A DNA stretch of 64,000 nucleotides, taken from positions 160,001 to 224,000 of the forward strand of contig CAVYSE010000003.1 of NCBI GenBank assembly GCA_963771075.1, given 5' to 3'. Each line of letters opens with the position of its first letter. The first letter of the stretch is position 1. The position numbers and the translations under genes are program-made. Below the pieces are notes generated by a model. The model saw only the letters and a list, made by a program, of their open reading frames with translations. It made no database searches and was not told where the DNA came from. This document shows positions 4,642 through 49,840 of the stretch, piece by piece. Source of the stretch: a candidate division FCPU426 bacterium. Its GTDB lineage: Bacteria > Oederibacteriota > Muellerivitia > Muellerivitales > Muellerivitaceae.

Positions 4642-5322
4642 GTGATCTCCGAAGTTGAATTAAGAAACGAACTCAACGCAATGATTGATTCCTTCCTGGA
4701 AGATTGTCCCTTTTTCTTGTCGTGGAAGAAGGGTTCCATCGACCGGACTTTGTCCGGGAAATTTCTCGCCACCTTCGACACCTTGGTAAAAAGTTTCCCG
4801 GAGTTGATCGCGGCAGGGGCGTCGCGCATGACGGACGAAGAGGCTCGGACAGTCCTGGCGGTGAACTTGTACCAGGAATGCGGTGAGGGGAATGTCCAAC
4901 GGACCCATTACGCCATCTACCGGAAATTCCTCTCCACCACCGGGTTGGACCTTTCCTCCGTCACCGAAAATGGATTCGCGGAGGAATGGAGAACCAAGAT
5001 GAAGGGTTATATCCAGGACACCGGGTGTGTCGGGGCCGTACTGGGCGCCCTGGCCGCCGGGGAATACCTGGCACAACCCGCCTTGACCCGGATCTATTCG
5101 GTGCTGAAACCCCTCTTTCCCGGGGCGGACCCCGAATATTTCGAGAAACACCTGGTGTTGGAGGAAGACCATGTCAGGGAAATCACCGGGATGATGGTGA
5201 AAGAGGCTGAAAAAAACGACGGACTGGAAGCGGTGCTATCCGGCTTTAAGTTCGGATTATCGGTTTGGGGGGAATACTTTGGCCACCTGGCCGAGTTTGT
5301 GACCTCGGCAAAAAAGGGTTGA
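4642..5322 (+). CDS. Heme-oxygenase-like (TenA/PqqC-type) iron-containing redox protein
   Basis: NLYQECGEG..TH and YFEKHLVLEEDH metal-ligand pattern. Confidence 0.7.
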   Translation: MISEVELRNELNAMIDSFLEDCPFFLSWKKGSIDRTLSGKFLATFDTLVKSFPELIAAGASRMTDEEARTVLAVNLYQECGEGNVQRTHYAIYRKFLSTTGLDLSSVTENGFAEEWRTKMKGYIQDTGCVGAVLGALAAGEYLAQPALTRIYSVLKPLFPGADPEYFEKHLVLEEDHVREITGMMVKEAEKNDGLEAVLSGFKFGLSVWGEYFGHLAEFVTSAKKG

Positions 5323-5324
5323 AG

Positions 5325-6110
5325 TCAATTAAACACCGGCAGGGGGCTGAGCCGGCGGCATCCCAACTTCACGATCTCGGTGACATGAAGCTGCATCATA
5401 TAGTTGAGGTACCTTTCCTGGGCGCCGGCAAGTTTGAGCCTCCGCTCGTAAGTGGCGCAATCCAATAAAATCAAATCCTTTCCATTCGCGATATGGGGGG
5501 GTTCATCCTTTTCGATGTCGTCAATCGCGTTCATCAGTTCGGGATCGAATAATCGCTTGAAAATACTGGTTTCCAGGTCGGTCATGGAGGAGAGCACTAT
5601 TTCCCCGGCAAATTGGTTGGCGGCGGCGATTTCCGAAGCCGTTTCGGCCTCCGTTTGGACCCTTTGCATTTGGACGAGTATTTCGGGCAGCACAAAATCG
5701 CCGATATTGGGCTCCGCGCCATAACGGCGAAGTTGCCGGGCGAAAACGTCATAATGACGCACCTCATCCCTGATTTGCCGGGCGAGCCTTAATTTCAACT
5801 CGACCTGGTCCTCGGGCAAAAGCGTGATTTCCCTTGCCTGGGCAACAGTGCCAAAATACCACTCCGACCAGGCCCGACGCCTTAGATAGGCGACGAGGGC
5901 GGTTTTATAAACTTCCTCATCCAAGGTCATGAATTCGTACTTCCTTGAATCATACAGGTCGTCCCCCACGTTCTTGGCGCGATGATAAAGGGCTTGCATG
6001 AACTCGTTGGGAGTTAACTTCATCAGTTCTTCCGAGCCCCACTTGGAATAGGATGGAACCATAAGAGGCTTATCCCCATCGGATGGATGGGCTTGATCCG
6101 GGTTTTGCAT
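5325..6110 (-). CDS. Ferritin-like diiron-carboxylate protein
   Basis: Two DExxH motifs (DEVRH, DEPPH). Confidence 0.7.
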   Translation of the reverse strand: MQNPDQAHPSDGDKPLMVPSYSKWGSEELMKLTPNEFMQALYHRAKNVGDDLYDSRKYEFMTLDEEVYKTALVAYLRRRAWSEWYFGTVAQAREITLLPEDQVELKLRLARQIRDEVRHYDVFARQLRRYGAEPNIGDFVLPEILVQMQRVQTEAETASEIAAANQFAGEIVLSSMTDLETSIFKRLFDPELMNAIDDIEKDEPPHIANGKDLILLDCATYERRLKLAGAQERYLNYMMQLHVTEIVKLGCRRLSPLPVFN

Positions 6111-6277: not shown

Positions 6278-6303
6278 GTCCATGTTGGGTCCCCGCAGTG
6301 GCC
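6278..6303. repeat. 26-bp cassette-boundary site R1 (degenerate): GTCCATGTTGGGTCCCCGCAGTGGCC
   Basis: Matches consensus GTCCA-N4-GGGTCCCC-N4-TGGAC with one arm mismatch. Confidence 0.75.
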
Positions 6304-6328
6304 AGCAGCCTTAATGAGGGTGGCAATG

Positions 6329-6601
6329 TTATTTTTTTCCGGCAACAGCCAACAAGGCCTCGTTGATGACGGTTTGGTATCCGATGCCTCTCTGTTTGCC
6401 AATTCTCTTGGCCCATTCTAAGGTTTTCGGATTGAGGCGGATTGAAACCGGCAAATAAAGCTCATGAGGCTCTTTAGTCGGTCGGCCACGCGGACGGCGC
6501 GGCTTGCCCGAGTGATGTTCGATCGCTTGCCGGTTCTTCTCCACTTCTCCGGGAGTTATCCTTCTTGCCTTGTGAAACGGAAATTCATTTGAGTTCTTCA
6601 T
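6329..6601 (-). CDS. brnA: BrnA-family antitoxin
   Basis: RGRP..VSIRL..GYQTVINEAL ribbon-helix-helix C-terminus; overlaps the toxin gene. Confidence 0.85.
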   Translation of the reverse strand: MKNSNEFPFHKARRITPGEVEKNRQAIEHHSGKPRRPRGRPTKEPHELYLPVSIRLNPKTLEWAKRIGKQRGIGYQTVINEALLAVAGKK

Positions 6602-6866
6602 AACGGTTCCTTTCCCGACGGCTTGCCGGCCTTGCGCTGATGATTCGACAGACCTGGCCTTGTAAGCGCTTGGTGAAAACGACCACTAAAATCTTTCCAC
6701 CGTCAGCTTCTCCAATCAACCATTCCCTGGATTCCAGGGTCGAGTGTTTAGGGTCAGCGGCTACCAGGGCAAAAGGATCATCAAATTCCGTAATAGCTGT
6801 TTTGAATGAAACGCCGTGTTTCTTTTGGTTGGCTTCGTCCTTGGCGAGGTTCCAATCAAATCGCAT
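6585..6866 (-). CDS. brnT: BrnT-family ribonuclease toxin (DUF497)
   Basis: FDWNLAKDEANQKKHGVSF...RIISARPASRRER. Confidence 0.9.
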   Translation of the reverse strand: MRFDWNLAKDEANQKKHGVSFKTAITEFDDPFALVAADPKHSTLESREWLIGEADGGKILVVVFTKRLQGQVCRIISARPASRRERNRYEELK

Positions 6867-6946
6867 ATTTTTAGTATATACAATAAATAAAGGTCGTCAA
6901 GGTTCGGTTTCTCATATTCGGACTATCTCTTAATAGGGTTTTAGCT

Positions 6947-6972
6947 GTTCACGATAGGTCCCCGTCGTGGAC
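6947..6972. repeat. 26-bp site R2: GTTCACGATAGGTCCCCGTCGTGGAC
   Basis: Direct match to consensus with two mismatches. Confidence 0.9.
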
Positions 6973-7002
6973 AAAAACTACAAGCCGAATACGGGTGGTC
7001 CG

Positions 7003-7440
7003 CTACCTTTTTAATTCCTCAAGTGGAAGAAGTCGCGAGTCTTCCAAGGCGGCCGTTCGGTGTCCAAGACCTTTCAAATAACCTTCGTTGGACGCAAAAG
7101 AAAGAAATGAATCCACGCTCTGCTGGCGGATAAGCGCAACCATATCCCACCGCTCGGTTTCTGGCCCAATTAGAAATTTACCACCTTTGCCGAGGAACAA
7201 TATATCTCCCCCGGTCTCACGCAAGAATGGCAAGGTATGGTCGATATAGCGTCGAAAGGCATCCGCGCCGCTGATGGGTGTTGGCGGACGAAGATCCGGT
7301 GTCGCTGAATAGTCGGCGGTTTCACGGAATCGCAGTAAGTTCAACATCACGATTTCCCCGAGGATCCTCCGCATGACGAAATCCCGTCCGGCTTCCTGCG
7401 TCACATCAAGATAAGGTTTCGTTCCATTTTTATTTGTCAT
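7003..7440 (-). CDS. DUF1330-family protein
   Basis: VMLNLLRFR..A.Y..LIGP..WD...HRTAALEDSRL. Confidence 0.8.
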   Translation of the reverse strand: MTNKNGTKPYLDVTQEAGRDFVMRRILGEIVMLNLLRFRETADYSATPDLRPPTPISGADAFRRYIDHTLPFLRETGGDILFLGKGGKFLIGPETERWDMVALIRQQSVDSFLSFASNEGYLKGLGHRTAALEDSRLLPLEELKR

Positions 7441-7500
7441 TCAAGCTTGTCCTTTTTTTAGACAGTCATTTCCAACCTAGCAGTTCAGTCTCCAGATATT

Positions 7501-7526
7501 GTCCAATGCGGGTCCCCATCGTGGAC
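7501..7526. repeat. 26-bp site R3: GTCCAATGCGGGTCCCCATCGTGGAC
   Basis: Direct match to consensus. Confidence 0.9.
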
Positions 7527-7573
7527 AGGTAATCGAATCAAATCTCGCTTTCGAGTTTCCAGCAACAAACAGT

Positions 7574-8104
7574 TTAGCGGTTCGGGAATTTTCCTTGGAT
7601 GGTTTTGATCGCCAGAAACAGCGTTTGGGGTTTGTTTGCCAACGGATGGAAACCGTATTTTTGATAAAACCGGACAGCTTGATCATCCTTGGCGTCCACT
7701 ACAACTCCGTAAATTCCAATTTCGTTTGATAAACGTTCAGCTCTCTGTAAAGCGTCTATCAAGAGCGCAATGCCAATTCCACGGCCTTGGTGCCTTTTAT
7801 CCACCGCCAATCTTCCGACCCTAATGGCAGGAGCGGGATAACGGGGGAGGCCTTTTGAATGGGGGGGCGGCAGCATTTGGGAGTCGATTTCTGAAGACAC
7901 GGCCGTGTAAAAACCCAAAACCTTCCCGCTCTCGCTTTTCATCTGCGCAACAAATGTTTTGCCGATGTTTCGTTCATGGTTTTGCCGGGCATATTTTCGC
8001 AAATATTCATTTAGCTCTAATACCCCGCAATCAAAGGAATCAAAATCCAAATGGCAGGTTATGGCTTGAATCTCGAATGCTAAAGGATTCCCTGCGGGGT
8101 TCAA
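7574..8104 (-). CDS. GNAT acetyltransferase toxin (TacT/AtaT-like)
   Basis: FDCG..LN.YL, RLAVDKRHQGRGIG acetyl-CoA motif, FYQKYGF; coupled to DUF1778. Confidence 0.9.
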   Translation of the reverse strand: MNPAGNPLAFEIQAITCHLDFDSFDCGVLELNEYLRKYARQNHERNIGKTFVAQMKSESGKVLGFYTAVSSEIDSQMLPPPHSKGLPRYPAPAIRVGRLAVDKRHQGRGIGIALLIDALQRAERLSNEIGIYGVVVDAKDDQAVRFYQKYGFHPLANKPQTLFLAIKTIQGKFPNR

Positions 8105-8376
8105 GGGCGGCTATATTTCTTGATCGCCGCTGACAAAGCCTTATTGGGACGGGGCGGATTTTCCAGTACTTTCATGAAAGAATTCCACTCATTTTCGGAA
8201 AGAGTGATGCGGCTTTGGGTCGTAAGCCCCTCCTGGGCGGCCCTTAAGGAATTTGAAAGCATGAACGCACTGAGGCTAAGGCCAAAAATCGAGGCGGCCT
8301 TTTCAAGCATGGCCTTGTCTTTCGGGCGGATGCGAATTTCAATTCGTTGTTCCCTGGATTGTGTCGCCGTTGGCAT
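8101..8376 (-). CDS. DUF1778 antitoxin (TacA/AtaR-like)
   Basis: RIEIR..KAA...SLSAF...ITLS...F...LENPPRPN. Confidence 0.9.
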   Translation of the reverse strand: MPTATQSREQRIEIRIRPKDKAMLEKAASIFGLSLSAFMLSNSLRAAQEGLTTQSRITLSENEWNSFMKVLENPPRPNKALSAAIKKYSRP

Positions 8377-8451
8377 AAAGACCTCCTAATTTCTATAAAA
8401 GAAGCATACCTCATCGTACGGATGATGTCCACACACAAGACAAAAATGGTC

Positions 8452-8463
8452 GTCCACGACGGG
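8452..8463. repeat. Left arm of split site R4 (GTCCACGACGGG)
   Basis: Joins 9973-9986 to give a perfect 26-bp site once 8464-9972 is removed. Confidence 0.85.
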
Positions 8464-9462
8464 TAGTTCTGTTCTTTTCTTCATCTTCGGCGTGAACTTC
8501 ACTACCCATTTCCCCCGGCGGTTTATCTCCATCCGGAAGTCAAACCCCAGAAACCCAAAGCTTTCGCCTTTCGTTAAGTCCACTGTCCTCGTTTTGTCCG
8601 TGTTGATTTTCAGGTCAAGTTTAACCAATTCCTCAAGTAGCCTCTGGTAGACCGCCTTCACAAGCCCTTCCCCCTGTGGGTTTCCATCCACGAGGATCAC
8701 CATATCGTCGGCAAACCTCGCATATTCGACAGGGGTGTACATCCCTTGCCGGGTCGCTTCCTTCGCCTTTTCCAGCATCTTGTCCACCTCGTTGAGGTAG
8801 AGATTCGCCAGAAGTGGGGAAACAACTCCGCCTTGGGGAACTCCTCTTTTGCCGCTGGCTTTCAGGATTAGCTTCAGCAATCTCATCACCGTTTTATCCT
8901 CAATCCTCTGCGCTACCTTCTTCAACAGCAGGTCATGCCTTACCGTATCGAAGTACGCCTTCAGATCAAGGTCGATGACTCGGGTTTTCCCCCCGACAAT
9001 TGCTTCGGCTACCCTGTTCACCGCCGCATGAGCAGTCCGCTTGGGCCGGTACCCATAAGACCCGTCTTGAAAATCAGCTTCGAAAATTGGTTCCAGGATG
9101 AGCTTCATCGCTCCCTGGACAACCCTGTCCCGAATGTTGGGTATCCCAAGAGTTCTGACCTTCCCATCTCCCTTGGGTATCTCCTTCTTCCGGTTCCGGG
9201 CCGGTCTATACGTGCCTTGGACTAGTTCACGCTGGATGCTTTCAAGAAACGGCTCTATCCCTGCTTCTTCAATGGCCTCAAATGTCACCCCGTCTATTCC
9301 AGGGGCTCCATTGTTTGACTTCGCCATCTGGTAAGCCTGTTGGAGCGCTTCCATCTTGCAAACATGCGTGTAAAGTCCCCAGAAACGCCAGTTCTTCTCA
9401 GCCTTCGCTTTGACGTATATCTCTCGTCTCAGGTCTTGCAGACTGATGGACGTCTTTTTCAT
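8464..9462 (-). pseudogene. ltrA: Truncated group II intron reverse transcriptase
   Basis: GAPGIDG, RTLGIP..DRVVQ, PQGGVVSPLLANLYL, FADD, FLGFDF; reads into the repeat arm (PVVD) and stops at 8386. Confidence 0.9.
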
Positions 9463-9972
9463 ACCGTCCCTGCCTCCCACTTTTGCCAAGAGATTTCACA
9501 ACAGCAGGGTTACTTCGCTCCACGGGAATTACCCCGCTTCTTAGCTACTTTTAACCCGTCCTACTCCCTCTTGCCTTCGACCGCTTTCCCGCATCGGGTT
9601 ATACGGCCTACCTTTTTCCAAGTATTTCTACCTGGGGCAAGGAGGGTCTCTCCAGTTGCTTGGTATGTCCTTGTCATCATGCCGTGGCTAGCACCCCGCC
9701 AGTGTGTTCCAGCGCATTGGCCATCTGGCCGCTGTTCCATGTTGCCTTCATCCCACGACGGAGGATTCGGCCACTGGGGCTATTGTTTTCGGGGCCACCT
9801 ATGCCTTCACTTTCGTTACGGCCTGACGACTCGCTCACCATCCCGAAGATGGCTTTGTCGATGGGCTTCAGGCATTAAGTTTCCCGCTTGCCTGCCATCC
9901 TAGCTAATGGGTTTTGGCTATTACCCATGCAAGTCTACCTCTTGCTGAACACACCTGCCTTTTCTGGACGCA
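8464..9972 (-). mobile_element. Group II intron, 3'-truncated (5' RNA domains plus RT; no maturase end, no domains V/VI)
   Basis: Starts (A)TGCGTCCAG on the minus strand, ~500 nt of non-coding leader, RT ORF cut off after KKRTEL. Confidence 0.85.
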
Positions 9973-9986
9973 TCCCCGTCGTGGAC
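9973..9986. repeat. Core plus right arm of split site R4 (TCCCCGTCGTGGAC)
   Basis: Complementary to the left arm at 8452-8463. Confidence 0.85.
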
Positions 9987-9990
9987 AAGC

Positions 9991-10534
9991 TTAACCAGAA
10001 CTCGATGAATATTTTTTAAGAATCGTTAATTCTTCAGGTGTAAAAAAATCAGGCCATTTCTTTTTAAATGGCAAAACAAACCCCTTATAGAACCATTTAC
10101 GATCAATTCGGGTTTTTAGCGCATCGGGCAATTCATGTATGGCATCCATATAATCTGTAACTAGACTTAGATTTGTGTTTTTGATTAAAGAAGAAGTCCT
10201 GCTAAATACATGGATGAGTGTGTCATGGTCTAATTTCGTTATGCTTCGAGGCCATGGGTAGTAATAAAGAATTTCCGTTAGTTCTTCCTGGTCTAAAGTT
10301 TGGATTTTTAAAACCCGGCAAAGTATTTTTTCCCCATGTCTCTTGTCCTGCTACACGAGATACTCGGTTATTTCCGTCGGCGAAACCATCATTCGCTTTA
10401 ATCTCTTCCAAAGCTCTCACAATCGCATTTAAATATTTAGTCTCTTCTGGCTTCGCCCTGGCCTGAACAGCCAATCGGTGCAATAGATCCAGAAAACAAA
10501 CAGAAATCATTTTTTGTTCAACTGGAGCACTCAT
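9991..10534 (-). CDS. AT-rich hypothetical protein, probably frameshifted (ORF 10223-10534 continues in other frames to a stop at ~9991)
   Basis: AGGAG RBS before ATG 10534; open frames continue downstream (…ITKLDHDTLIHVF…, …FTPEELTILKKYSSSSG*). Confidence 0.45.
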
Positions 10535-10575
10535 TAAATAATTCTCCTAAAAGAACCTCTTTATCGTTTTTCCTT

Positions 10576-10601
10576 GTCCAATCCGGGTCCCCGTCGTGGA
10601 C
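10576..10601. repeat. 26-bp site R5: GTCCAATCCGGGTCCCCGTCGTGGAC
   Basis: Direct match; followed by AAGCTTAACC, as R4 is. Confidence 0.9.
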
Positions 10602-10613
10602 AAGCTTAACCGC

Positions 10614-10966
10614 TTATTCACGTACCCTCACCCGTCCTTTTTCAATAATCCACAACCGTTTATCTACCTGTTCTTTGGACAACAGATCCAATACGGGGCG
10701 GAAAAGTTCGACCATGGTTGGTTTGTCCTGGCGGTCAGACCGGATCACCATGATTCCAGGATATTTTTCCGGCGGGTAAGCCCGGATATCCGAAAAATCA
10801 AGGTCAGAGGTAATGAAGGCGCGGTTTTCGGCCAAGCAAACGACGGCTAAATTCGTATCAGGATGGCCGGTTAATTCTTGGTCTTTTACCGTAAGGGCGT
10901 CATGACCAGCTTGGATTAAAAGATGTTTGATCTCGAAAGGCAGGTTTTCATCGATTTTGAACTTCA

Positions 10967-10967
<1 letters not shown>
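10614..10967 (-). CDS. DUF5615 PIN-like toxin (VapC45-like)
   Basis: MKFKIDENLP..GHD..ITSDLDF. Confidence 0.85.
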
Positions 10968-11287
<320 letters not shown>

Positions 11288-11335
11288 TTAAACAACCCCT
11301 AAAGGCTAAAACCGGCTCTAATAGCACTATTACCT

Positions 11336-13314
11336 GCAGAGTAGAGCGCTGGCGCGTATGCCTTAGAGTACGGTGGCGAATCCAACCCTTTCGGATTGGG
11401 CCTCAGTCCGGCTCTCATCACCACGTTTCCAGCGCCCCCTCATCAAACCGTACGTGACCTTTTCGATCATACGGCTTTCCGACAACCTTTCAACCGGCAG
11501 CATTCAAGGCAAAAGCTGGAATCCAGTTCAAACCAAGGCGTTTCACTTCCTCGATCGACCATGTTCGTCCTTCCCAGGCGTACTTATGCCTCCGAAACAA
11601 AGTCAGCCTTTCGAGTACGTAAAATTGAAGCTTGGAAAAGTATGGCTGGCTGTCCCCAATTCGGAAATAGTTGGCCCACCCCCTTAACACCGGGTTCAAA
11701 GCCTTCGCTACATCCTCCATTGGAGATAAGAGCCGCTCTCGGCCCGCCGTCATCTGCTTCACTTTCTCGGCGATTTTCTTCATGGCCTTCCGGCTCGGCC
11801 AGCTCAGGCAACAGGTCTTACCCAATCCTACCACCGGCATACCTACTCGAAAGTGGAACCCAAGGAAGTCAAACCCTTCCTTCCCAGGCCCCATTTCCAC
11901 CAGCCGTGTCTTTTCGGGGTGCAGTTCAAGCCCTAGTCGTCCCATCAATTCCTTGATGACTTCCAGGCTCTTTTCCGCATGGGCTTGGCTTCCGCACAAC
12001 ACCACAAAATCGTCGGCGTAGCGCACCAGCCTACCCAGTTTCCTGTGCCTCTTATTCCAAACCTTGTCCAGCAAGTGAAGGTAAACATTGGATAACAGCG
12101 GTGAGATCACCCCGCCTTGCGGTGTCCCTCGGAGAGTCGGCGTAAGCCTTCCTTCCTCAAACACACCCGCCTTCAGCCACCCTCGGATCAGTTTCAAAAC
12201 CTTCCGGTCACTGATCCTCTGGCGCACCAGCACCATCAGTTTGTCGTGGTCGATGGAATCGAAATACTTCCGAATATCTCCATCCACCACCCATCTGTAC
12301 CCGCCATTGATCCACTTCTTGATCTCCCGGTGGGCCTGCTGGGCTCCGCGTTTTGGCCGAAATCCAAACGAGCCTTCCAGAAAGTCCGCCTCAAAGATGG
12401 GTTCCACCACCTTCCGGCAAGCCGCTTGAACTACCCGATCCCGAATTACCGGGATTCCCAACGGTCTCTTGCTTCCATCAGGCTTGGGTATTTCCACTCG
12501 TCTCACAGGTTTAGGCAGATACTTCCCAGCTTTGAGTTCTTCCTGGATGCCCTTCAGGAATGGAATAATTCCCACCTTCTCTTCGATCCATTCCAGCGTT
12601 TCCCCGTCCACTCCTCCTTGGCCTTTATTAGCCTTCACCTGTTTCCATGCCGCTGTCAGGACATCCCATCGGGTCATCCTGTCATGCAGTACATGAAATC
12701 TCCGGCTTGGGCTCCTCTTGGCCGCTCGGTATAGCGCCCTTTGAAGGGTTCGCGCCTTGTCTTCGGAGTTGTTGGCCCTTTGGGGCATGCTCCAGCGCCT
12801 CCCTTTTGAAGGTTGCTTGGTTGAAGCAGGGGTCCTTCCCTCCAGGTGGTTTTGTTGTCCACCCTTCACAGGTATTGTGACCCCCTCCGACTTCCTCCCG
12901 CCCTTGCCCCTTTTCGGTTTTAGCCTTATAGCGGCAAGTCTTTTGGCGGGTAGGATCTCCCAGGTTGCTTGCAAAGCCTTTCCAGCATTCCGTTCCCCAT
13001 ACGCCGGAGGACTTTCCCCGCTTGCTCCAGATTCTTCAGCGGGATCGTGGCCTTCGCCGGTAGACACGCGGCTCGGCATCCTCTTGCACCTTTCGGTGTC
13101 CCATTCACGACGCGGCAGGATTCACTTGATGTTGCGGACTGCTAGATTGTTCCCTCACTGAATGAGGTTTATGACCCCGTTTCGGGCAGAACCTCTCGGT
13201 CCTACGCCGGGGGCTGACTTCCAGGCTCTCTGGCGATTACCTGGTCAGGATTTGGGCTGGCCCTCTTCGGCCTACTCCCTCACCTGCTGGCTCTACAAAC
13301 CTTCGCTGGCACGA
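11336..13314 (-). mobile_element. Complete group II intron
   Basis: Domain V AAGCCGTATGATCGAAAAGGTCACGTACGGTTT (~11446-11478), domain VI ending CCAGCGCTCTACTCTGC, intact RT; ends uncertain by a few nt. Confidence 0.9.
11490..12788 (-). CDS. ltrA: Group II intron RT/maturase without endonuclease domain
   Basis: RPLGIP..DRVVQ, PQGGVISPLLSNVYL, YADD, domain X LNPVLRGWANYF. Confidence 0.95.
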   Translation of the reverse strand: MPQRANNSEDKARTLQRALYRAAKRSPSRRFHVLHDRMTRWDVLTAAWKQVKANKGQGGVDGETLEWIEEKVGIIPFLKGIQEELKAGKYLPKPVRRVEIPKPDGSKRPLGIPVIRDRVVQAACRKVVEPIFEADFLEGSFGFRPKRGAQQAHREIKKWINGGYRWVVDGDIRKYFDSIDHDKLMVLVRQRISDRKVLKLIRGWLKAGVFEEGRLTPTLRGTPQGGVISPLLSNVYLHLLDKVWNKRHRKLGRLVRYADDFVVLCGSQAHAEKSLEVIKELMGRLGLELHPEKTRLVEMGPGKEGFDFLGFHFRVGMPVVGLGKTCCLSWPSRKAMKKIAEKVKQMTAGRERLLSPMEDVAKALNPVLRGWANYFRIGDSQPYFSKLQFYVLERLTLFRRHKYAWEGRTWSIEEVKRLGLNWIPAFALNAAG

Positions 13315-13315
13315 T

Positions 13316-13341
13316 GTCCACGAAGGGTCCCCGTTGTGGAC
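13316..13341. repeat. 26-bp site R6: GTCCACGAAGGGTCCCCGTTGTGGAC
   Basis: Direct match to consensus. Confidence 0.9.
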
Positions 13342-13386
13342 GGCAAATTCACTTCAAAATAGTAATAGTGGCCTGACACCTTTTTC

Positions 13387-13842
13387 TTAGTCTAAAATCT
13401 TTCGCATTTGCCTGCAATCTTCCGCAATCCCGGTAAGCTCATCCGCATCCCAGTCATAAAATTCCCAGCCCAATTTTTTGTAGAATCCCAAAGCCTCAGG
13501 CGCGGCATTCACATATAAAGTCTTAATCCCAAAGTCGCGCGCATACTTTTCCACCAAAGAAGATAATTGGCGTCCGTGACCACTCCTTTGGTAATCATCT
13601 GATATGGCAACCAGTCGTACCGCGCCATAGCCATCTCTAAAATCATCTAAGCGGGTAGTACCAACAGGGATGTTATTGAGCAACAATAGAAGCGGGTGAT
13701 GATTCGGCAGATATTCATCCTCATGCATTTCATCGTAGTCTTGTTTTCCACGATTTTCCCACAGCACTTTATGGCGAATGTCGTGATATGCCTGCCAATG
13801 GTTCAAAGCGGTAACTTTTATGAGTTCATAGTTTTTTTGCAT
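13387..13842 (-). CDS. GNAT N-acetyltransferase
   Basis: VRLVAIS..YQRSGHG, NA..A.GFYKKLGW. Confidence 0.85.
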   Translation of the reverse strand: MQKNYELIKVTALNHWQAYHDIRHKVLWENRGKQDYDEMHEDEYLPNHHPLLLLLNNIPVGTTRLDDFRDGYGAVRLVAISDDYQRSGHGRQLSSLVEKYARDFGIKTLYVNAAPEALGFYKKLGWEFYDWDADELTGIAEDCRQMRKILD

Positions 13843-13915
13843 TTTCGAACCTAACAAACCGTAATTCAAAAGTATTTTTAAAAAAGGGACAGACCAACAT
13901 TAACCATTTTTCCCT

Positions 13916-13941
13916 GTCCAATGCGGCTCCCCATCGTGGAC
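13916..13941. repeat. 26-bp site R7: GTCCAATGCGGCTCCCCATCGTGGAC
   Basis: One difference from R3. Confidence 0.9.
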
Positions 13942-13953
13942 AGGTCCATCCTG

Positions 13954-14376
13954 TTATTGCCCACTCTTGACTACTTTGGTGATCTTAACAGAGTCGATGC
14001 AGACAAATTGCATGACCCCTTTTTGATAGGGCGTACAGGGGCATACCGTGAAGATTCCATAAACCTCAGCGCCCAAATCATCCCTGAAAATCGCATCTAA
14101 ATTTTCTGGAGTGGGAGCTTCACCACGCACACCCAATACCCTCTGGGTTCCAATCATCCAAATCTTCATTGATGTAAGATTGGCGCCAAAACGTGCCCGT
14201 CCCCTAAAAGAAAAGCATTTTCCAACAACCCTGGGGTCGCTATGACAGGGGCCTTTGAATTCCATGTAGGAGTCTACTGTCGGGGTGGCAGTGGCACTAT
14301 CAGCACTGACGGGGTGTTTCAACCCCACGCACAAAAGAAGAAGAGTTATAGAAATAATATTTATTTTTTTCATCAC
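13954..14376 (-). CDS. Secreted Cys-containing hypothetical protein
   Basis: N-terminal signal peptide; C..CF.FRGR..CP.TP...MQFVCI. Confidence 0.7.
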   Translation of the reverse strand: MMKKINIISITLLLLCVGLKHPVSADSATATPTVDSYMEFKGPCHSDPRVVGKCFSFRGRARFGANLTSMKIWMIGTQRVLGVRGEAPTPENLDAIFRDDLGAEVYGIFTVCPCTPYQKGVMQFVCIDSVKITKVVKSGQ

Positions 14377-14399
14377 GTCTCACTTCTCCAATTTTGTCT

Positions 14400-14425
14400 G
14401 TCCACGATGGGTCCCCATCGTGGAC
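14400..14425. repeat. 26-bp site R8 (perfect arms): GTCCACGATGGGTCCCCATCGTGGAC
   Basis: 12-bp perfect inverted arms around TC. Confidence 0.95.
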
Positions 14426-14430
14426 AAGGA

Positions 14431-14787
14431 TTAAGCCCTGCGAACCCGAACCTTTTGATTTGTGGCTACGACATTGCAACCAGCCCAAGTGGAGACATCT
14501 TCACTTTCAAAAATCTCCACAATGCGTTTAAACAGGTCTTCGCGGCTAGGATCAATAAGTCGGATGAGTAGAACGCCATGGTGGGTTCCCGGGGAATGGC
14601 TTCGTATGTCGGAGAAATACAAATCCTGTGATACTAGAAAGCGCTTGGCTTCCTGGGCGGCCTTCCAAACGCTTGGATCGTCCTTGCCCTTCAGGCTCTC
14701 TTGGAGGACGGTATCCACGTCATGGCCGAGCCGGGTAAGGGGTTCACTTAAATCGGCGGGAAGGTTCTCATCCAGCTTTATTTTCAT
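14431..14787 (-). CDS. DUF5615 PIN-like toxin
   Basis: MKIKLDENLP..GHDVDTV; paralog of 10614-10967. Confidence 0.85.
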   Translation of the reverse strand: MKIKLDENLPADLSEPLTRLGHDVDTVLQESLKGKDDPSVWKAAQEAKRFLVSQDLYFSDIRSHSPGTHHGVLLIRLIDPSREDLFKRIVEIFESEDVSTWAGCNVVATNQKVRVRRA

Positions 14788-14796
14788 GTGGTGGAA

Positions 14797-15033
14797 TTAG
14801 ACGGTTGGGACGGCGGGAACGGGCAGGTCTTCCTCAGCAGAAGATGCGGCATAAGAAATGACGGAGGTTACCGCCTCACGTGTTAACGAGGGAAAAGATT
14901 TAAGCACTTGATCCATGCTGTCACCGGCGGCAAGGCTGGCTAAAACAGTCCTAAGAGTTACCCTCGTGCCTTTAATGACGGGTTGGCCGTTACAGATTTT
15001 TGGGTCTCTAACGATAAAGTCCGTGTGATTCAT
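14797..15033 (-). CDS. DUF433 antitoxin
   Basis: DPKICNGQPVIKGTRVT...FPSLT. Confidence 0.9.
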   Translation of the reverse strand: MNHTDFIVRDPKICNGQPVIKGTRVTLRTVLASLAAGDSMDQVLKSFPSLTREAVTSVISYAASSAEEDLPVPAVPTV

Positions 15034-15159
15034 AACCCCTCCTCATCAACTGAAGTTATTTTAGGCATGATGCCATGGGGGAACAAGTGGCTGTGTAGTA
15101 AGTGGCCCTTATGCAATATAACCAGCCCAAAAGGAGGTATATTTACAATCAATTTAGGT

Positions 15160-15185
15160 GTCCACGATGGGTCCCCATCGTGGAC
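15160..15185. repeat. 26-bp site R9 (identical to R8)
   Basis: GTCCACGATGGGTCCCCATCGTGGAC. Confidence 0.95.
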
Positions 15186-21778: not shown

Positions 21779-23945
21779 CGTCATCGTAGAGCCGAATGAA
21801 ACGTCCCCGCAAAAGCGTTTCCCGCTACCCCGCCGATCGATTCATCCCCGTGTACGCGGGGAACACACCCCCTCCTGGAAAGCGTACTGCGTGACCATCG
21901 GTTCATCCCCGCGTACGCGGGGAACGTTCAACATCTAAAACAATTTGCTCAACCCAGTCCGGTTCATCCCCGCGTACGCGGGGAACGTTGGCCTGTGCAA
22001 TTGGGGGAAAATGTATCCCTCGGTTCATCCCCGCGTACGCGGGGAACGTAAGCCAAGTTCAGGGCTTTTGTTTTACGGGCACGGTTCATCCCCGCGTACG
22101 CGGGGAACGTGGTCCGGGGACAACCTTCTTTTACGCACAAATCGGTTCATCCCCGCGTACGCGGGGAACGTTTAATTAATTAACCTAACTTTCTCTAAAA
22201 ACCCGGTTCATCCCCGCGTACGCGGGGAACGTTTGCATAGGCCAAAGCCTAAGACTGAAAAGACCGGTTCATCCCCGCGTACGCGGGGAACGTAAGGCCT
22301 TCATCCAGACCAACCCGGGTTGGGGCGGTTCATCCCCGCGTACGCGGGGAACGTAAAGGCATTTGATTGCGCGGGAAATCAATATACGGTTCATCCCCGC
22401 GTACGCGGGGAACGTCATTTCTTCTAAATCGGACAACGGTAAACCATCGGTTCATCCCCGCGTACGCGGGGAACGTTACATCCTCCCGTTAACAACGTAT
22501 TCAAGAGCCGGTTCATCCCCGCGTACGCGGGGAACGTCTAGTAATGAGGCATTAAATGAATTGGTTTTGCGGTTCATCCCCGCGTACGCGGGGAACGTTA
22601 CAATGTGGCAACCGCGGCCTCGATTACCGGCGGTTCATCCCCGCGTACGCGGGGAACGTCGATACTAACTCATGCAAATACCGGCAATCACCGGTTCATC
22701 CCCGCGTACGCGGGGAACGTACTGATTCTGAAATTCCTGTATCGTCTATTTCCGGTTCATCCCCGCGTACGCGGGGAACGTGATGCTTTGGCTGGCCGGA
22801 ACAACTGCTGGACCGGTTCATCCCCGCGTACGCGGGGAACGTAAAAGAGAGAGTTAACCGAAACGTTTTCCATCCGGTTCATCCCCGCGTACGCGGGGAA
22901 CGTAGTCAAGCGCACTCCGAACCGCCGCTCGGTTTCGGTTCATCCCCGCGTACGCGGGGAACGTTGTGAGGGCCGGCGAAAATAGGCCCGCTAAAGCGGT
23001 TCATCCCCGCGTACGCGGGGAACGTGACGCTCAATTTTTCCTAGACAACTTGGATTCCGGTTCATCCCCGCGTACGCGGGGAACGTGTTTTAGCTAAGTC
23101 TGATTTAACATCTTATGCCGGTTCATCCCCGCGTACGCGGGGAACGTGTCTAGGACAAATTGAGGCATCATAATCGCTCACGGTTCATCCCCGCGTACGC
23201 GGGGAACGTTCAGTGGACTCCACCTTGTGCTCCACGGACGCGCGGTTCATCCCCGCGTACGCGGGGAACGTTTGCTGAGTATCGTCTCGATCTCTGTCAC
23301 GAGCGGTTCATCCCCGCGTACGCGGGGAACGCTATCCTTGAGAATTGAGGCGAGGCATCTTGTATCCGGTTCATCCCCGCGTACGCGGGGAACGTTGGGG
23401 TATGCTAGGGTATGACAATTAATCTCGGTTCATCCCCGCGTACGCGGGGAACGTTAGACCCTTTTGAATTCCGACCGGAAAAATTCCGGTTCATCCCCGC
23501 GTACGCGGGGAACGTGACTGATACCCACAAGTTTTATGGCGAAGGACCGGTTCATCCCCGCGTACGCGGGGAACGTCGGTGTTCACACGTTGCAGCTGGA
23601 GCGCTGGACGGTTCATCCCCGCGTACGCGGGGAACGTTCCAATCGACTTTGCCAATTCGCAAATACTTCTCGGTTCATCCCCGCGTACGCGGGGAACGTC
23701 TGTCATTCGGCCATTATGCGTACCATCGAGTCGGTTCATCCCCGCGTACGCGGGGAACGTTTGCCTTGGTTTTGGTGCCATTATCGGCCTACCCGGTTCA
23801 TCCCCGCGTACGCGGGGAACGTTTCACCATCTTCTGCTGGGCCTCGTCCTTGGCCGGTTCATCCCCGCGTACGCGGGGAACGTTAGAAACTCTCTCCCTT
23901 AAATTTAACTACCCCGGTTCATCCCCGCGTACGCGGGGAACGTAA

Positions 23946-25000
23946 CCCGAGTTCCATAAGTAAGTGCAACACTCAGTGCAAGAAGAAAGCCGCCTCCATA
24001 GGATAGGCGGCCATGAAAAAAAACTACAAGCATTTAAGCGTTGAAGAAAGAGATCACTTGGCCGTTTTGAAGGGGAAAGGTCATGGGGTCCGGGATATCG
24101 CCAGAATCCTCAAGCGTTCCCCATCCACCATCTCCCGCGAACTCAAGCGCAACGCCCCAACCATCCGCACGGGTTATTACTTAGCCCACCGTGCCCACCT
24201 ACGATATATCGTCCGTAACCAGCAACGGGCACGCCGTTTACGCCTGAAAACAAAGCGAATTCGTGCCTACGTCCGCCGTCAATTGAAACGAGGTTGGTCT
24301 CCTGAACTCATTTCGGGTCGTTGGAGCTGCCTACATCCCAAGCAAACCATTGGCCCCGAAGCCATCTACCAGTGGATTTACATTGAGGCCACTGATTTGA
24401 TCTCTTACCTCGTTCGACACCACCGGCAACGTCTCTCTTTCGGCCACAGCCGTAAGCACGCCAAAAACCATATTCCAGGCCGTGTTTCCATCGACAAAAG
24501 GCCCAAGGCCGTCAACCAACGCAAGCAGTTCGGCCATTGGGAAACCGACACCATGGTCTCCCGTGAAAGCAAAGTCGCCATGCGGGCTCTCGTCGAACGT
24601 CAAAGCCGTTTTTCCAAGTTGGGAAAGCTCAAACGAAAAACAGCTGCCCAAATGAGTCACAGCCTCAATCGTACTTTAGGCCGCTTCCCTCAAGAAGCTC
24701 GTCTGAGTTTGACCTACGACAATGGAACCGAAAACACCAACCACCTGGAAACCAACCGCGTGCTTGGTACAAAATCCTTTTTCGGTGCGCCTTTCCACAG
24801 TTGGGAAAAAGGCACTGTAGAAAATACCATTGGTCTTGTTCGCCGTTATTTGCCCAAAAAGACTGACCTTGCTAAAGTATCTCTCAAAGAATTCAAAGCC
24901 ATCGAAAGATGGCTCAATCACAGGCCCAGAAAATGTTTGGGTTTTAAAACTCCGGCGGAAGTCTTCCGGCGAAGTGTTGCACTTACTCCGTGAATTCAGC
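23946..25000 (+). mobile_element. IS30-family insertion sequence
   Basis: Imperfect 28-bp terminal IRs sharing AGTAAGTGCAACACT; TAA(C) target duplication. Confidence 0.92.
24013..24993 (+). CDS. IS30-family transposase
   Basis: HLSVEER..STISRELKRN, GHWETDT, YDNGTE, WEKGTVENT, LNHRPRKCLGFKTP. Confidence 0.95.
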   Translation: MKKNYKHLSVEERDHLAVLKGKGHGVRDIARILKRSPSTISRELKRNAPTIRTGYYLAHRAHLRYIVRNQQRARRLRLKTKRIRAYVRRQLKRGWSPELISGRWSCLHPKQTIGPEAIYQWIYIEATDLISYLVRHHRQRLSFGHSRKHAKNHIPGRVSIDKRPKAVNQRKQFGHWETDTMVSRESKVAMRALVERQSRFSKLGKLKRKTAAQMSHSLNRTLGRFPQEARLSLTYDNGTENTNHLETNRVLGTKSFFGAPFHSWEKGTVENTIGLVRRYLPKKTDLAKVSLKEFKAIERWLNHRPRKCLGFKTPAEVFRRSVALTP

Positions 25001-25553
25001 TAACTTCACCTGAGCGATACTGATTTTTTTAAACGGTTCATCCCCGCGTACGCGGGGAACGTTCAGGGGTGACGTTTCCGGAATCAGGGTGACCGGTTCA
25101 TCCCCGCGTACGCGGGGAACGTTCGGTGATCGCCCAATTTCACCATTCCGCCTTCGGTTCATCCCCGCGTACGCGGGGAACGTAGGTCTTATCCTCCTTT
25201 CCCTTGACTCTCTTTCGGTTCATCCCCGCGTACGCGGGGAACGTAGACCAAGATTGAGCCACACCTTCTTCCTAGCCCGGTTCATCCCCGCGTACGCGGG
25301 GAACGCTGGCATGGCAATACGGAAATGGGGACAGATCAAATCGGTTCATCCCCGCGTACGCGGGGAACGTTGTCACACAGGCGGGAGCGGCGACGACATC
25401 TCCGGTTCATCCCCGCGTACGCGGGGAACGTTTCTTCTGTTTCGGCATGAGCAGGTTCCTCCTCGGTTCATCCCCGCGTACGCGGGGAACGTGGCTTGTA
25501 ACTGATTCATTAGTCACGACCTCCCGGTTCATCCCCGCGTACGCGGGGAACGT

Positions 25554-25617
25554 ACTTATAAACGGCCATTTAACGCGTCATTTTTCCGTCAAACGGCTCC
25601 GTAGCCCTAAAAACGCC
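25554..25617 (-). promoter_or_regulatory. Short CRISPR leader
   Basis: 64 bp between the cas2 stop and the first non-degenerate repeat. Confidence 0.6.
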
Positions 25618-26826
<1,209 letters not shown>

Positions 26827-26830
<4 letters not shown>

Positions 26831-27315
26831 TTGGGGCCTTCCTGCGCTTTTGGCAGTTCCTCAAGCTTGTACCGGACATACTTGCCGCCCCCCACCCGCA
26901 CCAGGCGTTTGCCGTGCATCATCCGAAAGACGTGATTTAAGAAGAAATAGTTGTCCCCCCTTCGGGTCACCCCTTGGCAGAGGTCCAAAAGCCGATTCAA
27001 GTTATAAATTAGGGTACTTTTGGGAACGCCCAGTTCACGTGCTAAATCCCCTGGGGCGATTTCCCCCTCACGTTCAATGCAATCTATGATCTTTTTCCAA
27101 TATTCCATGGCATCCTCATGCGGGCGTCTTCCTTTTTTTCTGTTGAGATAGGCTTCTGTTTTAGGTTTGGGCGCCTTGTCTTTGGTGATGGATTGGATGG
27201 GTTGCGCCAAGGGAGGTGATTCAACAGGCGGGTTTGGCTTTGGGTGTGCAGCTTGGGTAGTATTTAAGCCAAAGAGACCCTTGATTAAACTTTTAATAGA
27301 CGGTTCATCTGCCAT
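26827..27315 (-). CDS. Winged-HTH domain protein translationally coupled to cas1
   Basis: GEIAPGDLARELGVPKSTLIYNLNRL; wing LVRVGGGKYVRY; ATGA overlap with cas1. Confidence 0.7.
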
Positions 27316-27337
27316 ACACCCACCATCCTTTCACCTT

Positions 27338-27809
27338 CTCACGTCCAATTTTAGCCGTGTTGTCGCTTTAATTGGACGCGAGGCAGTTTAAATGTCGTTT
27401 AAACGAGCCTTACATTCCCAAGACAAAACAGACCTTTGTCTTATTAGAAAAAATCCAATGTTTTCCGGCCCAGGTTATCCATCCGTCACGTCCAATTTTA
27501 GCCGCGTTACAGTTTTAATTGGACGCGAGACGCGTTTATCAACCCCTACCGTTCCATACGACTCCATCCCTTTGCCATCTCACGTCCAATTAATACCGCA
27601 TTGCGGACAAAATTGGACGCGAGACACCCTGCATAAACCATCTCAAACACCCAACTTGTGCAAGAGGCCCTTGCACAATTGACCGGTTGAGCTAAGCCGA
27701 AACAAAAACCCACATATACTTGAGATTCCGGGGTAAAAACCCCTCATGTCCGGGAAAGCGGCGGATAAACTTGCCAATTAATTCCGAAATACGGAAATAA
27801 TTGGCAAGT
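27338..27809. repeat. Four inverted-repeat boxes CCAATT-N19-AATTGG (27338-27382, 27485-27529, 27579-27623, 27769-27809)
   Basis: Three 45-bp copies (C/G)TCACGTCCAATT-N19-AATTGGACGCGAG; fourth has ACTTG/CAAGT outer arms and the same spacing. Confidence 0.85.
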
Positions 27810-27832
27810 AAGCCCCGGAAAACGACCGTGAC

Positions 27833-28894: not shown

Positions 28895-29526
28895 GCAGGA
28901 ACCACCGAAAAGAGGCCTAATCCCATTGCTTTACCCCTACCAATGCCGGTTTTAACGGCGGTTTTAAACTTCTCCGGTTCCTTTACCGTAAGAATTCCGT
29001 CAAAAAGGACAGAAAATGCGTGAATGGCACCGCCATTACGCCTATCACCATGGGCCATCTTTTCTTCCGAGACATGGATTGATACCAGGGAAAAACCGTG
29101 GTTCTCCCCCTTCCTGGCAAGCCATTTTTCCTGTTCCACCAAGCGCAATAGACCCAGGCGTTTCCCATTGTGGATATCGGTTTTGCTGGGATTGGCCCGC
29201 AATCGGTAACGAAACCTTTGCCCTATTGAAAGGGAACCCAATTTCAACCGACCGGTTAAATCAATCGGAGAATCTGGATCGCGGGCGAACCAATCCTTAA
29301 CCCCGATTCGTGACCAATCAGGTGTTGAACGGCTTTGGACCAAAACCCTTGGATTCCCTTTCGGGTCTGTTTCCGGCTCCAAACGCCAAAGGATCTCCCC
29401 TGGTGGACATTTCTTTTCAGGTGTCGAAAACGCCCGGCAAAGGGTGGAATGCATCTCATAAGGATCGGCCAAATCGCGCCGGGCTTCCTTGCAGCGAAGG
29501 TTGAGGTGCAACCTATGCAGGAGCAT
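28891..29526 (-). CDS. cas6e: Cas6e (Cse3)
   Basis: DPYEMH, YRLRANP, GIGRGKAMGLGL. Confidence 0.95.
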   Translation of the reverse strand: MLLHRLHLNLRCKEARRDLADPYEMHSTLCRAFSTPEKKCPPGEILWRLEPETDPKGNPRVLVQSRSTPDWSRIGVKDWFARDPDSPIDLTGRLKLGSLSIGQRFRYRLRANPSKTDIHNGKRLGLLRLVEQEKWLARKGENHGFSLVSIHVSEEKMAHGDRRNGGAIHAFSVLFDGILTVKEPEKFKTAVKTGIGRGKAMGLGLFSVVPA

Positions 29527-30181: not shown

Positions 30182-30183
30182 AG

Positions 30184-48257: not shown

Positions 48258-49502
48258 CTATTGGCTTTTGTTCAAGCCGGTGATTTTTAATAATACAACC
48301 CCATGGGCGGGCACATCGGCGGCATAGCGGTCGGCAAAAGAACCCGCATCGGCGTGTTTCCAAAGGTCTCGCACCTTGGCGGTCTTTGACTTAATTCCCA
48401 CAACTTTCCAGACCGCGGTCATGTTTTGGTTGTTTTCCGTGCGATTTAACAAGGCAACTGCCCCCGAATTTTCGCCCGATAGTTCCTTTGAATATACGTC
48501 CAAACCATTTCCATCCTTCCAAACCTCAATACATTGTTTACCCAAGGGGTCCTGATCCACCGCGATGACCTCCTTGTTTAAGAGAATATCTTTTGTCTTT
48601 GCGGACATGCTTCGTAAGTCATTGCCCGCTATCAAAGGTGAGGCCATCATGGCCCACATACTGAAATGGGCCCGGTTTTCCGAATCCGATAAACCCTGCG
48701 ACCCCACCAAATCCGATTGGGTATCAAAGACACGCCCCTGTTGAAGATCAGGAACATAGGAACAACCCACCACGAGCATATCCGGGTCATTCCAGTGATT
48801 GGGCCCCGCATATTGGGCGTATTGTTCGTTTAAATCGATGATTTGGAGAATGGCGCCCCAACTATCCGTGATATCTCCCGTGGTCCGCCAAAGCTGACCC
48901 GTACGAGGCATCCAATCCTTGAATTCCCAGGCGCAAATGCTGAATAGGATGGGTCGGCCTGTCGCCGCGAGGGCATCCCTCATTCGCCGATAATCCCCTG
49001 CCTGGGTTGTGGTGAAAACGGGATTGCAGTTGTCATATTTTAGGTAATCCACCCCCCAAGCCGCGAAATCCTTGGCGTCCGTGGTCTCAAAACCGTAGGA
49101 CCCTGGACATTTCCCAACACAAGTTAATTTTCCCCTGTCTTCATATATCCCGAATTTCAAGCCTTTCGAGTGGAGATAGTCGGAGAGAGCCTTAAATCCG
49201 TTTGGAAACCGTCCGGGATCGGGTACCAAATGACCTTTGTCCCGCCATGGTAAAGCCCAGCCATCGTCCAGGTTAACGTATTGGTAACCCGCGTCCCGCA
49301 TGCCGGATTGGACCATGGCATCGGCCGTTTCCCGAAGCAGGGCCTCGTTCGTTTGGTCTTTAAAAGTATTCCAGGAATTCCACCCCATCGGAGGAGTTCT
49401 CGCAAGGTCTCGAGCCGAAATAGTAGGCGGTTGCTGGCATACACAACCCGTTTCTAAAAGAAGGAGCACAGCAATGATAAGAAAACCTAAAAACTTATTT
49501 AT
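48258..49502 (-). CDS. GH27 alpha-galactosidase with signal/lipoprotein N-terminus
   Basis: TPPMGWNSW, LDDGW, YLKYDNC, WRTTGDI, WNDPDML; frame extends to an ATA at 49502 behind GGAGG (otherwise GTG 49469). Confidence 0.92.
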   Translation of the reverse strand: MNKFLGFLIIAVLLLLETGCVCQQPPTISARDLARTPPMGWNSWNTFKDQTNEALLRETADAMVQSGMRDAGYQYVNLDDGWALPWRDKGHLVPDPGRFPNGFKALSDYLHSKGLKFGIYEDRGKLTCVGKCPGSYGFETTDAKDFAAWGVDYLKYDNCNPVFTTTQAGDYRRMRDALAATGRPILFSICAWEFKDWMPRTGQLWRTTGDITDSWGAILQIIDLNEQYAQYAGPNHWNDPDMLVVGCSYVPDLQQGRVFDTQSDLVGSQGLSDSENRAHFSMWAMMASPLIAGNDLRSMSAKTKDILLNKEVIAVDQDPLGKQCIEVWKDGNGLDVYSKELSGENSGAVALLNRTENNQNMTAVWKVVGIKSKTAKVRDLWKHADAGSFADRYAADVPAHGVVLLKITGLNKSQ

Positions 49503-49543
49503 AAAAGCCTCCCCGTCGGAGACAAGGCTTAGGACTTTTAATT

Positions 49544-49762
49544 TTAGACGGTTATTTTTTTCACCGTATCCGTCTTTAAAATCACTTCCCCGGCTTCGTT
49601 TTTGATTGAAAAGTTATAACCAAATTTGGCGCCGTCGGCGCTTTTGCCTCGGATTACATCCCCCACTTTATAACGTCCGGCCGGATTAGCGACACGGGTG
49701 ACCGTGGCCACCACGTGGACCGGGTCAAATTCCAACGTGATCATTGCCGTTTCGATAATCAT
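49544..49762 (-). CDS. Small hypothetical protein (72 aa)
   Basis: AAGGAGG RBS before ATG 49762. Confidence 0.65.
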   Translation of the reverse strand: MIIETAMITLEFDPVHVVATVTRVANPAGRYKVGDVIRGKSADGAKFGYNFSIKNEAGEVILKTDTVKKITV

Positions 49763-49814
49763 AAAAACCTCCTTTTTCAGATACCCAAATTCGAAGCCAA
49801 TCCTTCTATACGTT

Positions 49815-49840
49815 GTCCGCGAACGGTCCCCAACATGGAC
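49815..49840. repeat. Isolated 26-bp site R10: GTCCGCGAACGGTCCCCAACATGGAC
   Basis: Same length, orientation and T..A flanks as R1-R9; two mismatches at conserved positions. Confidence 0.75.

Follow-up and report, generated by a model that had tools for sequence, protein, structure and literature searches.

Gene cassettes on a co-oriented 26-bp site in a candidate division FCPU426 bacterium, and a short serine recombinase as their likely mover

What separates the small, unrelated genes lined up between positions 6278 and 15185 of a 64,000-nt stretch of a candidate division FCPU426 genome (GCA_963771075.1, contig CAVYSE010000003.1, positions 160,001 to 224,000; hereafter the window), and what moves them? 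Nine copies of a near-palindromic repeat divide the locus into eight units, which a first-pass annotation had taken for a cassette array with a recombinase encoded outside the window. We conclude that the repeats very probably are gene-cassette boundaries, at which a short serine recombinase encoded elsewhere in the genome likely excises and inserts cassettes by cutting at a central TC dinucleotide. Below, G000 is the genome of the window, other G-numbers are genomes of relatives, C-numbers are contigs and L-numbers are loci.

The repeat copies were recovered as annotated, eight of them whole, all scoring best on the plus strand, and the ninth split (Table 1). Five whole copies were exact, those at 6278 and 13916 had one mismatch each, and that at 6947 had two. 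Over both strands of the window, the site pattern matched 16 times, compared with 0.10 matches expected in shuffles. The N4 stretches that the annotation had treated as free positions are not free; they belong to 12-bp arms. Without introns, the eight units measured 0.48-0.95 kb. Their genes are all on the minus strand, with stop-to-site gaps of 25, 30, 47, 4, 12, 45, 12 and 5 nt. Pfam searches returned most of the proposed cargo (BrnA/BrnT, GNAT with TacA1 (PF08681), DUF5615/DUF433 twice, and a GNAT), while the proposed DUF1330 was only a sub-threshold match (E 0.024). The orphan of cassette 4 comprised two overlapping frames (10223-10534 and 9991-10350). Cassette 1 had a counterpart with 89% identity in another array of the genome (C21). 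The GC content of cassettes was 46.7%, compared with 53.2% for the genome.

The site is 26 bp long, with two inverted 12-bp arms around an asymmetric TC core and weaker conservation two bases further on each side. When the core was left free, it read TC/GA in 344 of 355 sites; cores of 0, 1, 3 and 4 bases were rare (5, 9, 5 and 3 matches). Conservation was restricted to ~30 bp, and there was one site type, distinctive only in the gene-adjacent left arm. The arms showed no covariation, with a complementarity of 10.04 in the array form and 10.05 in the circle form, against 10.05 when shuffled (257 cassettes). This argues for protein-binding half-sites on double-stranded DNA, and recognition as a single-strand hairpin was rejected. 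Nor is the site an attC, as the annotation had recognized: attC-type ends (RYYYAAC...GTTRRRY) were present at 7 of 328 junctions and at 2 of 328 control stretches. Two other roles were rejected, that of a terminator, because a terminator scan named none of the sites, and that of a -35 promoter element, because -10 elements were not enriched at 16-18 nt (3, 3 and 2 of 311). Sites stood just 3' of stop codons in 80 of 98 cases, and the median stop-to-site spacing in cassettes was 19 nt.

The genome had 105 scored sites (one match in the reversed genome) in 31 groups, and 93 sites lay within groups of at least two. The site was also present in 27 of the 30 other genomes of the family and in the one other genome of the order; the pattern was found in none of the 67 genomes of the phylum outside the order. 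A set of 446 sites combined the whole of G000 with hand-chosen array-rich stretches of 12 relatives; clustering in the relatives was thus selected for, orientation was not. In this set, 348 of 355 neighbouring pairs within 5 kb had the same orientation. The longest open reading frame (ORF) was on a common strand relative to the core in 307 of 328 cassettes (17 opposite, 4 without one). A scatter in both orientations, as for repetitive extragenic palindromic (REP) sequences, and an invariant order and content had been named as signs against a cassette system. Both were absent: the sites were genome-wide yet clustered and co-oriented, and order and content differed between arrays and between genomes. 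An inverted duplication of part of an array at a contig end (G000 C26:140537-144686), probably an assembly artefact, adds a few duplicate rows to the counts. Integration at tRNA genes was rejected as an explanation (1 tRNA in 22 loci).

Other arrays carried many toxin-antitoxin components. About half of 76 scanned ORFs, namely 74 from the genome's other arrays (chosen from 93) and the two orphans of the window, had no Pfam match. PADLOC matched 3 of 76 larger cassette proteins (a sigma54-type regulator, a partial PD-T4-6 and Cas1), with no clear enrichment of defence functions beyond toxin-antitoxin pairs. In one relative (G044), a Cas1 gene and small neighbours lie between array sites (L200:14777-19292), which suggests a CRISPR-Cas module as cargo.

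The cassettes are almost certainly mobile at these sites. Among 328 cassettes, 67 pairs aligned over at least 80% of their length. Four cross-genus pairs were 100%, 100%, 99.6% and 99.1% identical; their flanks were unrelated, and identity stopped inside the sites. Binning errors may blur the genus labels, but not the changed neighbours. The inheritance of the arms was followed in pairs of sites with one common 60-bp flank at 95% identity or more, with 85% as a second threshold. The left arm tracked the left flank, with 0/204 mismatches (17 pairs), compared with 57/252 when the right flank was shared (21 pairs). For the right arm and right flank, the association was weaker (p 0.046 at the 95% threshold, 7e-4 at 85%). 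Arm variants put the crossover between positions 12 and 17. A G024 site holding a cassette 100% identical to one of G000 has other bases at positions 11 and 12 of its left arm; the insertion thus did not require a match at these two positions. The array beside the recombinase in G004 begins and ends with sites that carry the two halves of a site type that is whole after the recombinase in L079, and a homologous gene lies further downstream in both. The search for circular cassettes, which had been proposed as a check, gave no junction of a single-cassette circle in eight contig sets and one weak hint: in contig X2 (side 71), the first intron runs straight into the site at 10576, and cassette 4 is left out.

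For the recombinase expected outside the window, there is a strong candidate on contig C8. Its gene, the genome's sole resolvase-domain (PF00239) match, encodes 277 amino acids; 15 bp lie between its stop codon and a variant site, the first of a group of five. The protein contains PF00239 (E 5e-22) and PF07508 (E 3e-11), and a fold search with its predicted structure returned serine integrases (SPbeta, Bxb1, phiC31). There were 19 homologues with 67-96% identity. All 20 short proteins stop at 275-283 amino acids, ahead of their relatives' zinc ribbon; they have the catalytic and recombinase domains, no zinc ribbon and no coiled coil, and the catalytic motifs YVRVSS and DRLYR are invariant. Alignment puts the catalytic serine of the C8 protein at S20. 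They form one clade (support 100/100; 34 sampled outgroup rows), nested among integrases of 500-540 amino acids. The next homologues had at most 61% identity and were mostly longer or partial. Ratios of nonsynonymous to synonymous substitution rates of 0.04-0.16 in unsaturated pairs (seven genes) indicate purifying selection.

The gene is linked to the site. A co-oriented site or half-site lies 9-37 bp past the stop codon in all seven intact short-clade genes with downstream DNA (one at a contig end, one split by an intron), whereas none was found near more distant homologues at 89 loci (38 with at least 1 kb downstream; five full-length in site-bearing genomes). An N-terminal recombinase fragment in L077 has its nearest sites 3.8 kb away. 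The integron integrase (TIGR02249) was over the cut-off in none of 31 family genomes, and G000 had no match at E<=1e-20. Viral contigs had no exact site match, and none of their 26 recombinase loci was of the short clade over its full length. All 138 plasmid records were below 60% identity.

At the head of other arrays stand three 5'-truncated recombinase copies, each with the variant site found after the intact gene (C6:158408-158967, C8:42242-42779, C28:107694-108019), and similar remnants, 5'-truncated or frameshifted, were found in G002, G004, G021 and G046. The loci L181, L208 and L063 have 5'-truncated tails of this kind. These tails of differing lengths, with one shared first site at unrelated loci, possibly reflect how new arrays are seeded. 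In L001 (390-3476, 12793-13287), the intact recombinase locus is surrounded by genes of the ArdC-like, DUF2958 and RadC types and by a 500-bp element that is repeated, a setting typical of mobile DNA. A 2-kb segment past the last site of L001 recurs on C12, where it begins at a site.

From this linkage and the geometry of the site, the C8 recombinase is the likely mover. In solved integrases, the recombinase domain contacts half-site positions 1-12 and the zinc ribbon reaches further out (PMC3783163). Integrase cleavage leaves a central 2-nt overhang (PMC11722253), and deletion of the coiled coil made LI integrase promiscuous among its sites but inefficient in vitro (PMC5499577). A two-domain protein therefore fits a 12-2-12 site of one identity.

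In the mechanism that we propose, a recombinase dimer would sit on each double-stranded site, bound to both of its 12-bp arms. After synapsis of two sites, 2-nt staggered cuts would be made at TC, and subunit rotation would swap the halves, with the need for matching overhangs holding all sites co-oriented. Recombination of neighbouring sites would give a circle with one hybrid site, which could re-enter at any site, its orientation dictated by the core. With the zinc ribbon and coiled coil gone, one site would be equivalent to every other, and the reaction would run in both directions. Gene-less arrays, that of the window included, would be served in trans from C8, and toxin-antitoxin cassettes would limit cassette loss. 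Past the C8 gene, the cassette genes occupy the opposite strand and are directed at the recombinase gene, which leaves no room for read-through from an integron-type Pc promoter.

Several points weigh against serine-driven cassette movement. The crossover was mapped to a 4-bp window rather than to the dinucleotide, with a left limit from few cases. Right-arm inheritance was not significant in a cassette-level test (8/101 vs 4/41), three pairs with bodies at least 99% identical differ in the inner right arm, and the cassette and site pairs have common members and are not independent. The inefficiency of LI integrase without its coiled coil means that the reaction may depend on a partner or an accessory site. 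With about 100 equivalent sites in both orientations, the chromosome should be at risk. Intact copies of the short gene came from 5 of 31 family genomes, although 27 of 30 relatives have sites, and five array-rich genomes (three at least 90% complete) had no recombinase-domain match. The same pattern is seen in integrons, where half of the attC-site clusters that have no integrase (CALINs) sit in IntI-free genomes (PMC4889954), and mobile DNA drops out of bins; an enzyme unlinked to the arrays may also be involved.

An enzyme acting from a distance is the premise of the alternative that fares best, which we nevertheless consider improbable. Here, a tyrosine recombinase in trans (XerC/D-like or another family-wide enzyme) would move the cassettes with the central 6-8 bp as overlap, and the serine element would merely integrate at the site or carry it. 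The rarity of the short serine gene among site-bearing genomes fits this, as does the central GGGTCCCC, which is 94-100% conserved per position in a layout that can also be read as 11-8-11. The pdif modules provide a precedent (10.1101/2022.01.12.475240). All tyrosine recombinases are distant from the sites: the eight of the genome lie at least 25 kb from any site or on contigs without scored sites. In Xer recombination, the 6-8-bp central overlap must match between partner sites. The G024 insertion, one clear recent case among few, has mismatches within this stretch despite its identical cassette. The serine gene, by contrast, adjoins a site in every intact case, and the domains missing from it are exactly those that contact DNA beyond position 12.

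It is less probable still that the repeat is a REP- or terminator-like palindrome spread by a transposase or gene conversion, with cassettes exchanged by homologous recombination between copies. The genome-wide spread, the position right after stop codons, the targeting of sites by introns and an IS110 element, and 20 Y1 transposase matches in the genome would suit such a repeat. A near-palindrome of this kind would not be expected to keep strict orientation through a 2-bp core, to lack compensatory arm changes and terminator-scan matches, to cluster in low-GC accessory arrays, to end the identity of common cassettes inside the site, or to be linked to a serine gene. The dispersal and free orientation of REP sequences, which flank the gene of a REP-associated tyrosine transposase, were not seen; the 20 Y1 matches were not checked individually for flanking sites. 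We give an equally small chance to arrays being tandem accretions of decayed elements of a full-length serine integrase, with the short gene as an insertion-broken remnant: the nesting of the short clade, the truncated or frameshifted copies at array heads and the precedent of tandem islands of the staphylococcal cassette chromosome (SCC) type speak for it, and the common end of twenty short proteins within a few residues in one clade under purifying selection, the one- or two-gene cassettes with tight stop-to-site spacing and no integrase of their own, and the absence of sites near full-length homologues speak against it. An IS110 recombinase as the mover was rejected, since its two site-adjacent copies lack a second flanking site and resemble insertions beside the site.

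The sites are themselves targets of other elements. The first intron of the window array (8465-9972) is a 3'-truncated remnant that lacks 489 nt of the 3' part and has both junctions at the TC core. Its intact relatives insert three to four bases off-centre, and the core junctions could be the trace of cleavage at the core or else stem from misassembly. The second intron (11336-13315) stands exactly at the outer site end, and near-identical copies occupy about ten other sites of G000, on either side of the sites owing to the palindrome; three additional bases precede the usual 5' start. A hairpin of 35 bp, with inverted ends of 10 bp, interrupts the right arm of about a dozen sites (L020, which is G000 C26 130147-136845; L013, L008, L009, L016 and L019); no parent element was found for it. 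An IS110-family element (365 amino acids) lies a few bases right of a site in two arrays (G000 C5:85584-86976 and C9:1839-3231).

The window contains a second array, of one cassette, flanked by glutamine synthetase-like and glycosidase-like genes (names by eye). The main array is not a conserved locus, as 19 homologues of its left-flank gene all lacked a site in the corresponding position, up to 1.5 kb away; in G004 a degenerate site lies ~1 kb upstream, and in G021 a site follows the stop codon. To the left of the main array (4642-6110), convergent haem-oxygenase-like and ferritin-like (DUF455, sub-threshold) genes were kept together in 18 of 20 loci examined. Further on (~21900-37500) is a long CRISPR array with an IS30-like ORF inside (24013-24993; ORF lists, names by eye). 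Next to it comes a type I-E-like cas operon in which an IS200-type transposase (32177-32614; by eye) interrupts the cse1-like gene.

Table 1 Features of the two arrays in the window, with positions counted from its first nucleotide.
Feature	Position	Strand	Basis
Site 1, left array end: 12-bp arm, TC core, 12-bp arm	6278..6303	+	pattern match, 1 mismatch
Cassette 1: BrnT toxin 6585-6866 and BrnA antitoxin 6329-6601	6329..6866	-	ORFs, Pfam
Site 2	6947..6972	+	pattern match, 2 mismatches
Cassette 2: 145-aa gene, DUF1330-like below cut-off only	7003..7440	-	ORF, Pfam E 0.024
Site 3	7501..7526	+	pattern match, exact
Cassette 3: GNAT toxin 7574-8104 and TacA1-type antitoxin 8101-8376	7574..8376	-	ORFs, Pfam
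Site 4, left arm and first core base (T)	8452..8464	+	sequence
Group II intron remnant splitting site 4 (reverse transcriptase without maturase end)	8465..9972	-	Pfam, comparison with intact relatives
Site 4, TC core and right arm	9973..9986	+	sequence
Cassette 4: orphan in two overlapping frames (frameshift or assembly error)	9991..10534	-	ORFs
Site 5	10576..10601	+	pattern match, exact
Cassette 5: DUF433 and DUF5615 (PIN-like) pair	10614..11200	-	ORFs, Pfam
Complete group II intron (reverse transcriptase and maturase), outer end of site 6	11336..13315	-	Pfam, genome copies
Site 6	13316..13341	+	pattern match, exact
Cassette 6: GNAT acetyltransferase	13387..13869	-	ORF, Pfam
Site 7	13916..13941	+	pattern match, 1 mismatch
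Cassette 7: 140-aa orphan, N-terminus signal-peptide-like by eye, no Pfam match	13954..14376	-	ORF
Site 8, perfect arms	14400..14425	+	pattern match, exact
Cassette 8: second DUF433/DUF5615 pair	14431..15033	-	ORFs, Pfam
Site 9, right array end	15160..15185	+	pattern match, exact
Second, one-cassette array	49498..49840	+	degenerate site 49498-49523 and ORF by eye; site 49815-49840 by pattern
Small ORF of second array	49544-49762	-	by eye

Taken more broadly, this is probably a second, independently evolved integron-like system, in which a serine integrase stripped of its directionality domains serves as a bidirectional shuffler of one 26-bp double-stranded site. Its cassette pool would be family-wide and move between genera, with about 20 arrays per genome and a guild of site-targeting introns and insertion sequence (IS) elements of its own. 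In the open-access literature we found no description of such a cassette system; subscription papers were mostly outside this scope, and supplements of integrase surveys may list the proteins. For the storage and reshuffling of single-gene cassettes, integrons are the one system that is well known; their tyrosine enzyme is unusual, and their sites are folded single strands. If our reading is true, the cassette strategy arose more than once, whole cassette pools escape attC-based screens, and the question of how cassettes are made can be asked in a simpler setting. A natural, presumably bidirectional recombinase of 277 amino acids, acting on a short site whose 2-bp core gives the direction, would be a model for the loss of integrase directionality and a candidate compact genetic tool.

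The system is best read as an integron analogue on serine chemistry, not as an integron. With integrons and CALINs it shares cassettes of one or two genes that stand in rows, with a recombination site after each, and a cargo of toxin-antitoxin pairs and orphans (PMC4889954). A recombinase gene beside a distinct first site and many enzyme-less, CALIN-like arrays and genomes are also common to both. The sites described here are colonised by group II introns and IS110-family elements, as attC sites are. It differs in having no IntI, a fixed 26-bp double-arm site with a 2-bp core instead of a folded single-strand attC, a serine recombinase as candidate enzyme, and cassette genes that point toward the gene of that enzyme, not outward from a promoter of the Pc kind.

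Large serine integrases (LI, SPbeta, Bxb1, phiC31) have the same catalytic domain, helix E and recombinase domain (PF00239 and PF07508), and their central crossover dinucleotide sets the orientation (PMC3783163, PMC5499577, PMC11722253), for which the conserved core is the putative counterpart here. The short clade lacks their zinc ribbon and coiled coil. The zinc ribbon is not missing from the PLE integrase. Its sites are 26-30 bp long and all alike, whereas theirs are attP/attB pairs of 40-50 bp, and it has about 100 sites per genome with single-gene cassettes as cargo in place of a prophage or island. The pdif/dif modules of Acinetobacter plasmids are likewise short accessory modules with many toxin-antitoxin pairs, short exchange sites and IS elements inserting beside the sites (10.1101/2022.01.12.475240). 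They are, however, XerC/XerD tyrosine targets on plasmids, while the present sites have near-symmetric arms, are all co-oriented, lie on long contigs amid ordinary genes and are linked to a serine recombinase. The Ccr enzymes of SCC/SCCmec are serine recombinases with relaxed directionality that form tandem composite islands (PMC11795197). Ccr is full-length and carried in large elements at one locus, whereas the units here are small, enzyme-free and spread over about 20 clusters. The Hin/Gin/Cin invertases also use serine chemistry, on a site of 26 bp in which an asymmetric dinucleotide stands between two 12-bp arms. These invertases have a helix-turn-helix binding domain and two inverted sites around one invertible segment; the system described here has a recombinase-type binding domain and arrays of direct repeats.

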